This document shows positions 15,201 through 18,200 of a DNA stretch of 64,000 bases, piece by piece. The position numbers are program-made. This DNA comes from an uncultured Candidatus Rokubacteria bacterium (GTDB taxonomy: Bacteria; Methylomirabilota; Methylomirabilia; Rokubacteriales; DASRDR01). Position 1 is the first letter of the stretch; every line of letters begins with the position of its first letter. The stretch lies in contig CAVPSB010000013.1 in the NCBI GenBank assembly GCA_963708025.1, positions 192,001 through 256,000 of the forward strand, in the 5' to 3' direction.

Positions 15201-18200
15201 CGCGTCGTCGAGCACCGCCGCCTGATGGAGCTGCACCCACTGGAAGCCCATCGCCAGCGCGCCGCGGATCGCGATCGCGACCGCCTCATTGACGGCCGCC
15301 TCGATCGACGCCTCGGAGTGATCGGCCAGCGGTGCCGTGGTCTCGATGGCAGCCGTCCGCGCCAGCGCCGGTGACGCGAGCGCGAGCGCCAGCGCGAGCA
15401 AAAAGGCGAATCGAGTGAATCGCATGAGTCCACCTCCGGGCGATGTGGTATCTCGCCCAGCGGATCTTGCACGCTACATGCCGGGCGGCGCGGCGCCGTC
15501 AGGGACGGGTATGGTGAGTGAGCCGGACGGGATGGCTGAGGCCTCTCATCGGCGCCGCACCGCCAGGCACTCGCGAATCGGCACGCCTCTGCATCTCCGG
15601 CGACTGCGTGCCGCGGTGTCGGCGCGATGACGGGCGCGTCGGCCTTCCGAGCGCCGGCGCCCGGGCGATGACGGCGCGACGGTCAGGCCAGCAGGTGGAG
15701 GACGAGCCCCCAGAGCCCGAGGGTCACGAGGGTGGCGGCGGCGGCGAGCAGGTCGGCGAAGGGGACGCGCGAGAGCCGAGAGCTTGTCACCTGTTGAGGC
15801 CCCGGAGCCAAAAAAAGAGGCGACCGCGGCCGGCGACGAACGCGCCGAGGCGATCGCGCCCGCGTGACGCCGGGCCGCGGACGCCCGGAAGCCGGGAGGT
15901 CCGACACGAGTGGCGCGACGGTGGGCCGCACGGCCGTCAAGCTCCGCGGACCAGACCGACCACCTTGCCGACGATCCGGAAGTCGTGCTCGCCGGGCTGC
16001 ACGACGATCGGCGGGAGGGTCGGGTGCTCGGGCTTCAGGACCACGGCCTCACCGTCCCGGGTGAAGCGCTTCACCGTCGCCTCCCCGTCCACGAGTGCCA
16101 CGACGATCTCGCCCGGTTGAGCATGGTCCTGGCGCCGCACGACGACCACGTCGCCGTCGACGATGTGCGCGTTGATCATGCTCTCGCCGTGGACTCGCAG
16201 GCTGAAGATCTCGTCCGCCCGGCTCCCGAACCAGTCGGCCGCCAGGGGAAGGGTCCCCTCCCGGTTTTCCTCCGACTGGAGCGGCGTGCCCGCCGCGATG
16301 CGCCCGAGGATCGGGATCTCCCGCGCTGCCGTCGTCCGGTCGGCGAGGGTCAGCGCCCGGGAGGTCCGCCCGCTGCTCGCCCGGCGGCGCAGGTAACCCT
16401 TTCGCTCGAGGGCCCGCAGGTGGTCGAAGGCGGCACGCGGCGTCACGTGGAAGCGCTCGCCGATCTCGCGCACCGTCGGCGGCACGCCGTGCCGCTGCGA
16501 GAAGGTGCGGATGAAGCTGAGGACTTCCTGCTGCCGCCGGGTCAGCCGAGGCTCCATCGCCCCTCCCTCCGAGACGCTGCGCACGCCGCTCACGAACCTG
16601 CCCCGTCACCCGGACTCTACTCAACATACGTTGAGGCAGTCAAGCAAAAAAAACGGGCCGGGGGGGTCAGGTCGATTCAGACGTGGCGACCGCCTCCTGG
16701 GGATCGCAGACCGGGCAGGGCCGGAGCCCCAGCTCCCAGCCCTCCGCCGCCGTCTTCATGGCGATGCGCTCGGTCTCGGGGATGCGGGTCGCCCACGCGC
16801 AGCCCATGCGGTGGAGAAGACGACCGCCGCGCTGAGTGCAGAACGGCTCCCGCGGCGCGAGCATCGACGCGTCGGTCTCCTCGAAGGGGCCGCTCAGGTC
16901 CGGCGTCAGCCCCCGGGGGACATCCCCGGGCTCCGCCGCGGGAAGGGACACGACCGGCGTCTCCAGTCCAGCGGTCGACGCGGCAGCCAGGCCCTCGGCC
17001 GCCGGAGTGGCGGGAGCCGGGGCGGTGGCGGAGGGCGGGAGGATCGACTCCTCGTTGAGGTTCAGGTTCGTCTCGATGGTCGAGCGGAACTCGTCGCTTG
17101 CCCGGCGGAACTCGCGGAGGGCCCGCCCGAGCCGGCGGCCGAGATCGGGCAGCTTGTCCGGGCCGAAGACCAGCAGGGCGAGCACCATCACGACGAGGAG
17201 TTCCTGGACTCCGATGTCGAGCATGACAGGTATGCGAGATCGTACACGATGGCGCGAGGCCGCGCACCCTCGTTTTTTCCCGGGTCGACGCCGCCGGCGA
17301 GCCAGGCGACGCAGGGCAGGAGGGCGCCGGGGAGCGGCGCCGGCCTCGGCCGGCGGGGCGGTCGATCAGCCGATGAGGGCGGCGACCGCGTTGAGCAGGG
17401 TCTTCGGCACGAACGGCTTGGACACCCGGGCGTCGACTTTCAGGCTGCCCAGGTCGGCGCTCTCGGCGCCGGTGGCAAGGACGACGATGGGGATCTTGTT
17501 GTAGGTCGCGTCCTTCTGCATCTGGACGATCAGCTCCGGACCCGACATCTCGGGCATCCGAAGGTCCGTGATCACCAGGTCGAACGTATCGGCCTCCAGG
17601 CGACGCATCGCCTCCACGCCGTTCGGGACCACGTTCACGGTGTAGCCCGACTTGGTCAGGATGTCCTTGATGACTGCCAGGATCGAGGGATCGTCATCGA
17701 CTGCGAGCACGCGCCTCATTGATGCCCTCGTCCTCCGCGAAGGATGTCCTGGCCGAGCCCTTCTGGCCTCGGCCGCCCCTCAGCCGCACCTGCCAAACCC
17801 GCGCCCATCCTAGTCTGGCGGGGGTCGCGCAGTCAAGAAGTCCGCGAACGGGTCCGCGAACGGGGGCGCCGATTCAGGCCGCCCAGCGGGGGTGGGCTCG
17901 GGCGGCCGCTGAGCGGGGAATGGGAAATCGGCCGGGTCTTCCGAGACCCGGCCGATGATCCTAGCGCGGGGGGGCCACGTCGACCTGGAAGACCGGGACG
18001 GTGCCGGGAAACCCGCGAAGCGCGACGTTGCCCAGGAGGACCGCCTGGGCGCCGCTGGGCCCGAGCGCCGCCAGCGCCTCTTCGGAGATGACCAGCGAGT
18101 TCTTGCCGGCGCCGCGTCCGTGGAGCGTCTCCATGGCGCTCCCCAGACGCACGGTCTTCAGAACGGCCAGCCCGGTCCGGTTTCCTCGCGTGTCGGCGAA

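Follow-up and report, generated by a model that had tools for sequence, protein, structure and literature searches.

The lexA locus and its promoter

The window analyzed here, a 64,000-nucleotide stretch (positions 1-64,000) of the 8.17-Mb Rokubacteriales genome that we label G000, carries on its minus strand a lexA gene encoding 206 amino acids (15937..16557). The product scores 202 bits against TIGR00498 (cut-off 111), is the only match to this profile in the genome, and exceeds the cut-offs of both PF01726 and PF00717, which correspond to the N-terminal winged-helix and S24 peptidase domains. With its Ala89-Gly90 cleavage site and its Ser126/Lys163 dyad, 37 residues apart, it is a canonical LexA repressor with intact catalytic residues. 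The recognition helix, TPRAAFDHL, spans residues 39-47, and the best solved structural relative is the 3k2z LexA, which shares the short helix turn of the G000 protein. LexA proteins of the order form one clade (support 91/98). A tatA/tatB-like gene (16667-17224) lies directly upstream of lexA, as it does in 58 of 80 named loci from related genomes, and an ATP-dependent DNA ligase gene (13119-14579), close behind lexA in six named loci, lies downstream on the same strand.

The lexA promoter consists of a -35 box, TTGACT (16638..16643), and a -10 box, TAGAGT (16614..16619), both on the minus strand with a spacing of 18, and is the sole promoter-like pair within 15500-17400. Sixteen of the 18 spacer bases are occupied by a 16-bp palindrome, CTCAAC-ATAC-GTTGAG (16620..16635), about 60 nt upstream of the lexA ATG; its 14-mer core at 16621-16634 is TCAACATACGTTGA. 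The palindrome that a first-pass annotation had placed between the two boxes is thus present, in the predicted arrangement. The promoter frame recurs in relatives: of 78 loci, 49 have TTGnnn two bases ahead of the site and, immediately after it, 67 have TAnnnT and 75 have TA. Upstream of the -35 box, a T tract on the minus strand (16646..16653; T in 57-75 of the 78 loci at these columns) is possibly an UP element or the end of the tatA/B transcript.

In the entire 8.17-Mb genome, TCAAC-N4-GTTGA occurs exactly only once, as the core of the lexA site, and a matrix built without G000 ranks this site highest in the genome, at 22.4 bits. Inside the window alone, however, a one-mismatch match to the palindrome is reached in 40 of 100 shuffles and is not rare, so the case for an operator rests on comparison. 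Among the 30 best lexA loci from 151 genomes searched, G000 included, the site is exact in 20, has one change in three and two changes in six, and the remaining locus has just 112 nt upstream. The order-wide conservation claimed by the first-pass annotation therefore holds, although at 20 of 30 exact and 29 of 30 within two mismatches by our count instead of the 26 and 30 that it gave. A second set comprised 80 named loci (labeled Rokubacteria or Methylomirabilota), the best 80 of 144, found partly via the peptide pattern of the recognition helix. Here the site is exact in 66, with one change in four, two in seven and three in one, one further locus being cut and one weak; 77 of these best 80 of 144 have at most two changes, with 26 different N4 spacers. 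The helix TPRAAFDH is invariant over the 80, in part through the way in which the loci were selected. The degenerate form TYAAC-N4-GTTRA is present in 131 of the 151 genomes, against about 44 for the reversed control. In the family of G000 (f1), the lexA match and the pattern are both missing from the same five of 20 genomes, all incomplete, and sites at target genes without any lexA match are seen in five f1 assemblies (70-94% complete). Since the genomes are kin, locus counts overstate independence. Four unpublished genomes (G032, G055, G083, G170) contribute seven loci to the tallies (L128, L191, L192, L392, L523, L533, L541); they did not enter the matrix and are the sole basis of no claim. 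Some lexA promoters of another family of the order, f2 (L097, L094, L083), seem to have a second site, overlapping or adjacent.

A second site in a small gene behind lexA

About 140 nt past the lexA stop, a further operator-like site, CTCAAC-AGGT-GACAAG (15783..15798, minus strand, 14.1 bits), lies inside a small gene encoding a single-pass membrane peptide (15683..15790, minus strand), which would be 35 aa long if read from a GTG within the site, its start in G000 being uncertain. A tract of seven T residues (15810..15816, minus strand) precedes the site by 11 nt. Of the 76 loci in which the sequence extends far enough (G000 and 75 named relatives), 64 have a T tract followed after 10-13 nt by a half-perfect site, with a gap of 11-12 nt in 62. 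Across these 64 loci the left half is exactly CTCAAC in 59 and the score at least 10 bits in 53, and the ANNT spacer has its A and its T in all 64, although the search did not demand them. Codons within the site have T in the third position in 63 of 64 loci and CAA in 59 of 64, frequencies that in lexA genes are 2-5% and 8%, and the helix part of the peptide has a GC3 of 0.90. Since third-position T and CAA are fixed against this codon bias, the constraint on the second site acts on the DNA. The pattern of T tract and site matches G000 just twice, behind lexA and at a gene for a 95-aa protein discussed below.

The peptide keeps a hydrophobic C-terminal helix in 58 of the 76 loci. An ATG stands at the conserved distance in 48 loci, and in 41 of these it is no more than 45 nt from the lexA stop. 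It matched no Pfam family, and its atlas clusters are unnamed clusters of Methylomirabilota. SidA, DivS and ChiZ are small division inhibitors of the SOS response. A role as a division checkpoint is our best guess for the membrane peptide, by analogy with SosA and YneA (PMC11442139); a search of G000 for SulA found none. In f8, a family of a sister order, and in one clade of Rokubacteriales, a gene for an ImuA/RecA-like ATPase stands right behind lexA, in the place of the peptide gene (L395-L399, L206, L207, L210-L212).

We lean towards reading the second site as a second operator that would damp read-through into the peptide gene. About half as probable, in our estimate, is that it represents an RNA-level signal or the start region of the peptide gene, in which the T tract and a GTG, CTG or ATG codon would be what is conserved. 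The degenerate right half would fit such a signal, as would the T-G at positions 9-10, which always falls within an in-frame NTG codon, the site's single orientation and constant spacing from a T tract, and our failure to find promoter boxes flanking the site. The left half, optimal in most loci, the spacer A and T that were not asked for and the scores argue for an operator, and in f2 the peptide gene is about 60 codons long and starts 23-29 codons upstream of the site, with its own ribosome-binding site and ATG. Moreover, the T tract is not preceded by a terminator hairpin (median z 0.13), and a comparison of the region with Rfam gave one match, at chance level. The two sites of the lexA locus gave no signal of helical phasing.

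If the second site is an operator, LexA sitting there, 700-1100 bp downstream of the lexA promoter, could stop read-through into the small gene. Its product, on this reading most likely an inhibitor of division, would then be made only after near-complete LexA cleavage. That this intragenic roadblock, an order-wide core SOS role for the 95-aa gene and at least four pairs of operator and recognition helix in the class all hold together is a tentative proposition, to which we give well under even odds. If true, these pairs would provide a natural series for the recognition code of LexA.

Recurrence of the site at other genes

To score sites elsewhere, we used a matrix of 28 distinct lexA sites, from which G000 was omitted. 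In G000, a score of 10 bits is reached by 0.15% of random 290-nt windows and by 0.4% of random 800-nt windows; for 6.5 bits the shares are 1% and 2.6%. When the 1074 promoter-like spacers of G000 were scored with this lexA-trained matrix, lexA ranked first and imuA second. Forty-five sites in the genome reach at least 10 bits, mostly outside any promoter. Median scores over orthologous loci are 14.0 bits for the 95-aa gene, 14.5 (f1) and 13.9 (f2) for imuA, 11.8 for a radical-SAM gene and 14.5 for recA, and none of 200 column-shuffled matrices attains the observed median for any of these. When 19 genomes were scanned with a degenerate pattern, picked after the G000 candidates had been seen, the recurring targets were lexA, the 95-aa gene, imuA, recA, an AlkB-like gene, a radical-SAM gene resembling TIGR03916 and, with a weak site, an IclR-type gene. 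Pooling the sites gives the consensus CT[C/A][A/G][A/T]C-ANNT-G[T/A]T[G/T/A]AG, with CTCAAC-N4-GTTGAG as the optimum, and the true operator consensus is wider than TCAAC-N4-GTTGA.

The imuA-imuB-dnaE2 cassette of G000, with the three genes in this order, has its site at C23:112436. The Y-family polymerase ImuB (PF00817) and the error-prone DnaE2 (NF004225, 983 bits) exceed their cut-offs, the RecA-like ImuA (NF033429) remains below its own, and imuB is next to imuA in 28 of 30 loci, the other two being cut. In f1 the site is present at 18 of 19 loci, the other being cut, with 14.1-16.8 bits. This agrees with the first-pass annotation, which had also reported the imuA site in none of 15 loci from other families. 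A variant occurs, however, at 11 of 11 f2 loci (6.5-17.0 bits) and at all 20 of a further f2 set chosen across 17 genera (8.2-22.2 bits), always immediately after a TTG; the restriction to one family is therefore wrong. Together, the 31 f2 loci hold the site in the same promoter slot in every case, and 28 reach at least 10 bits. In dnaE2 of G000 (C23:115894-120264, L057), intein-like sequence is inserted from about residue 733 onwards, with matches to models of intein-containing DnaB, RecA and GyrA.

The second-best site in G000 (C17:66932, 21.2 bits), which the first-pass annotation had listed as a top scan match, precedes the 95-aa gene and marks a conserved candidate member of the regulon, as all 30 orthologous loci reach at least 9.3 bits and 28 of them at least 10. 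This gene also follows 16 of 20 exact matches outside lexA, picked among the matches listed. The protein has no Pfam family, no atlas match and 148 representatives, all unnamed, and is predicted with a pLDDT of 90 to fold as an all-helical hairpin, for which Foldseek returned no match at E 0.001. A conserved MFS transporter gene diverges from the 95-aa gene and starts at or near the operator (L031-L047, L302, L307, L315), so a single site may control both.

Three further targets appear to be additions of particular lineages. The radical-SAM gene is present in 47 of 77 f2 and none of 20 f1 genomes; its product scores 257-268 bits against TIGR03916, under the curated cut-off of 343.5, and is only TIGR03916-like. 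Across 30 of its loci, 16 sites reach 10 bits, 20 reach 6.5 and 14 fall below 10, with 29 judged by eye to share the slot. The AlkB-like gene (PF13532) has a site of at least 10 bits at 12 of 14 loci of g3, a genus of f1, and at none of 14 homologous loci with upstream DNA outside it. In g3, too, recA has CTC[A/G]TC-N4-GTTGAC over its -35 box in 15 of 15 genomes (14.5-19.6 bits); elsewhere, none of five other f1, one f4 (a further family of the order) and 28 f2 genomes reaches 10 bits. For G000 itself, where recA had been described as having no site, we found a weak candidate, CTCGCC-AGGC-GTTGAC, over the -35 box in the g3 register (10.7 bits, rank 2 of 428 TTGAC promoters), half of which is supplied by the -35 box. 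The earlier statement is thus weakened to the lack of a strong site in this genome. An intein-like insertion splits G000 recA (C22:119500-121530, L058) after about residue 229, the frame being broken in the assembly, and recA frames of about 700 aa are found in many genomes of the order.

Several other matches in G000 were rejected or remained weak. The DUF5131 gene named in the first-pass annotation (C2:124806, 16.1 bits) has its site in one of 19 homologues, that of G000, and is at most a genome-specific target. An MrfA/Hrq1-like helicase gene (C2:26816, 11.8 bits), top of the 428 TTGAC promoters, reaches 10 bits in two of 30 orthologues, four of 200 shuffled matrices attain its median, and it is a doubtful target. 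Upstream of the helicase gene, f1 (L419-L436) retains a different element, CATT[C/G]AAC ... AACGTTGACA, which is not a LexA box. The candidate site of G000 at C26:12877 precedes a glycosyltransferase gene and alters a nearly invariant G. The IclR-type gene, recognized by eye from the N-terminus of its product, has CTCGAC-N4-GTTTGG (C12:417333) with 9.7 bits in G000 and 7.8-10.1 in six relatives (L286, L291, L293, L303, L304, L306); in G000 it lies 2 kb ahead of uvrA, with no evident shared operon. At the two uvrA, two ssb and two dinB genes of G000 no site was found, the best score being 5.1. Two genomes of genus g15 (L048, L049) carry an exact TCAAC-TTAT-GTTGA beside a short direct repeat, for which no target gene was identified in either.

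The small regulon first proposed thus requires correction in its membership. The comparison points to a putative core of lexA with its small membrane-peptide gene, imuA-imuB-dnaE2, whose site is found across the order, and the 95-aa gene, with radical-SAM (f2) and AlkB-like and recA genes (g3, the recA site being gained in this one genus) as probable lineage-specific additions.

A probable LexA operator among known SOS boxes

The position of the palindrome in the lexA promoter spacer, its free centre, its recurrence at independent DNA-damage genes and its change together with the recognition helix lead us to conclude, with a probability of roughly 90%, that it is the SOS box, the LexA operator, of Rokubacteriales. 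The proposal of the first-pass annotation that it is the likely SOS box of this order gains support from the spacer position, from a matrix trained on lexA alone whose shuffled versions fail, and from sister orders. In the latter (L064-L067, L074-L080, L068-L073), the lexA promoter slot holds other palindromes, which are further candidate LexA boxes: GATAAC-N4-GTTATC in six of six f8 loci (helix SRFGAFRHV), C[T/C]ATAC-N4-GTAT[A/G]G in three of three f10/f11 loci (helix VPRSVFDHL) and GTAAC-N4-GTTAG in G151. In f6, a divergent LexA retaining R-A-A-x-D-H-L (G176, helix YRAAIDHL) is accompanied by CTCATC-N4-GATGAG, and f7 (helix YIRGVQYHL) has in this slot an unrelated TAGT-N12-ACTA-like element. 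No palindrome was found in the 200 nt upstream of lexA in G159, and in scans for further targets (five f8 genomes; five genomes of f9, f10, f11 and f6) lexA alone recurred. As the independent sister lineages are few, this co-change is supportive and does not amount to a statistical test.

By extension from established LexA biology, we infer how the system may operate. A LexA dimer would sit on the operator with one subunit per half-site. At lexA, imuA and the 95-aa, radical-SAM and AlkB-like genes the site takes up the -35/-10 spacer, and at recA of g3 it covers the -35 box, so that a bound dimer would block sigma-70 polymerase. Upon DNA damage, activated RecA would induce self-cleavage of LexA at Ala89-Gly90 and release the genes, those with weaker sites (imuA, radical SAM) presumably before those with stronger ones (lexA, the 95-aa gene).

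It is conceivable, but improbable in our view, that another regulator of lexA and repair genes, such as a WYL or HTH protein, binds the palindrome and that LexA acts elsewhere or nowhere. In the excerpted text of PMC3789691, LexA of Thermotoga and Leptospira is reported not to regulate itself, and the nearest structure, 3k2z, is that of a LexA whose short helix turn recurs in the G000 protein; over most of the order, moreover, recA is not regulated. On the other side, the lexA spacer is without any other conserved element, the position of the palindrome fits a repressor, and the palindrome shifts with the LexA helix in sister orders, where the divergent f6 protein with R-A-A-x-D-H-L is paired with its own variant. 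Least probable of all is that the motif is a LexA operator at lexA only and a promoter element or chance match elsewhere: the helicase and DUF5131 genes do illustrate how single-genome matches can mislead, and many target sites have a right half that runs into a promoter box, which contributes part of the score, but the left half-sites, which sit in the spacer, unconstrained in promoters, keep C-T-x-x-x-C over four unrelated genes in both large families, and the shuffled matrices gave 0 of 200.

The probable LexA operator gives Rokubacteriales, an uncultured order abundant in soil, an SOS box and a regulon that can be put to direct test. It would also tie two conserved small genes of unknown function to DNA damage, and adds a probable recA control gained by one genus alone, a site conserved within a gene and several palindromes within one class. 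Our literature search, with most subscription papers outside its coverage, returned no paper describing the CTCAAC-N4-GTTGAG motif or any LexA from this phylum, and the box is, provisionally, probably unreported.

The closest parallel is with Myxococcus xanthus, whose SOS box is given as CTRHAMRYBYGTTCAGS in the available portions of PMC2248561 (Table 5), PMC9705874 and bioRxiv 2020.12.14.422803. Both boxes are 16-bp palindromes with a four-base centre, outer C-T and inner AAC/GTT, and both regulons are small, that of Myxococcus having lexA, recA2 and imu/dnaE2 genes. They differ by one base per half-site, the best being CTGAAC in Myxococcus and CTCAAC here; the Myxococcus consensus occurs in none of the 80 lexA upstream regions (best 80 of 144). 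On the Rokubacteria matrix, a palindrome of CTGAAC halves reaches 12.0 bits, against 22.4 for the G000 site. With the Cheo box of Firmicutes and Actinobacteria, given in the accessible parts of PMC2248561 and PMC11442139 as CGAACRNRYGTTYC with the dyad AACn4GTT, the Rokubacteria box shares the AAC-N4-GTT core and a spacer that begins with a purine and ends with a pyrimidine, but it has C in place of the Cheo G, and an outer CT. GAAC-N4-GTTC, which scores -14.1, is found at none of the 80 lexA loci, and neither are the Gamma/Beta- and Alphaproteobacterial boxes CTGT-N8-ACAG and GAAC-N7-GAAC (best 80 of 144 in each case).

Similarities also extend to the proposed regulon and to the peptide behind lexA. 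SosA, YneA and SulA, too, are small SOS division inhibitors and, within what the extracts of PMC11442139 cover, proteins of this type resemble the membrane peptide in being small, lineage-specific, often membrane-anchored, encoded next to lexA and LexA-controlled, traits that for the peptide are suggested by size, helix, linkage and site; unlike theirs, the Rokubacteria gene follows lexA on its downstream side, reads the same way and contains the site, and no sequence likeness was found. Bacteroidetes, Balneolaeota and Verrucomicrobia have SOS motifs of their own (GGA-N5-TCC, CTAA-N5-TTAG and a direct repeat), and the genes targeted here are known SOS genes elsewhere (extracts of PMC8565304 and PMC7739468). 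In those regulons, as in the one proposed here, a lineage-specific box stands over a translesion cassette and repair radical-SAM genes and recA is not always induced, although their motifs were tested by gel shift, whereas the Rokubacteria box is predicted from sequence. That the box of LexA changes is well known, with 17 motifs counted by 2021 in the sections available of PMC8565304, and one more motif in Rokubacteriales is therefore to be expected rather than surprising.
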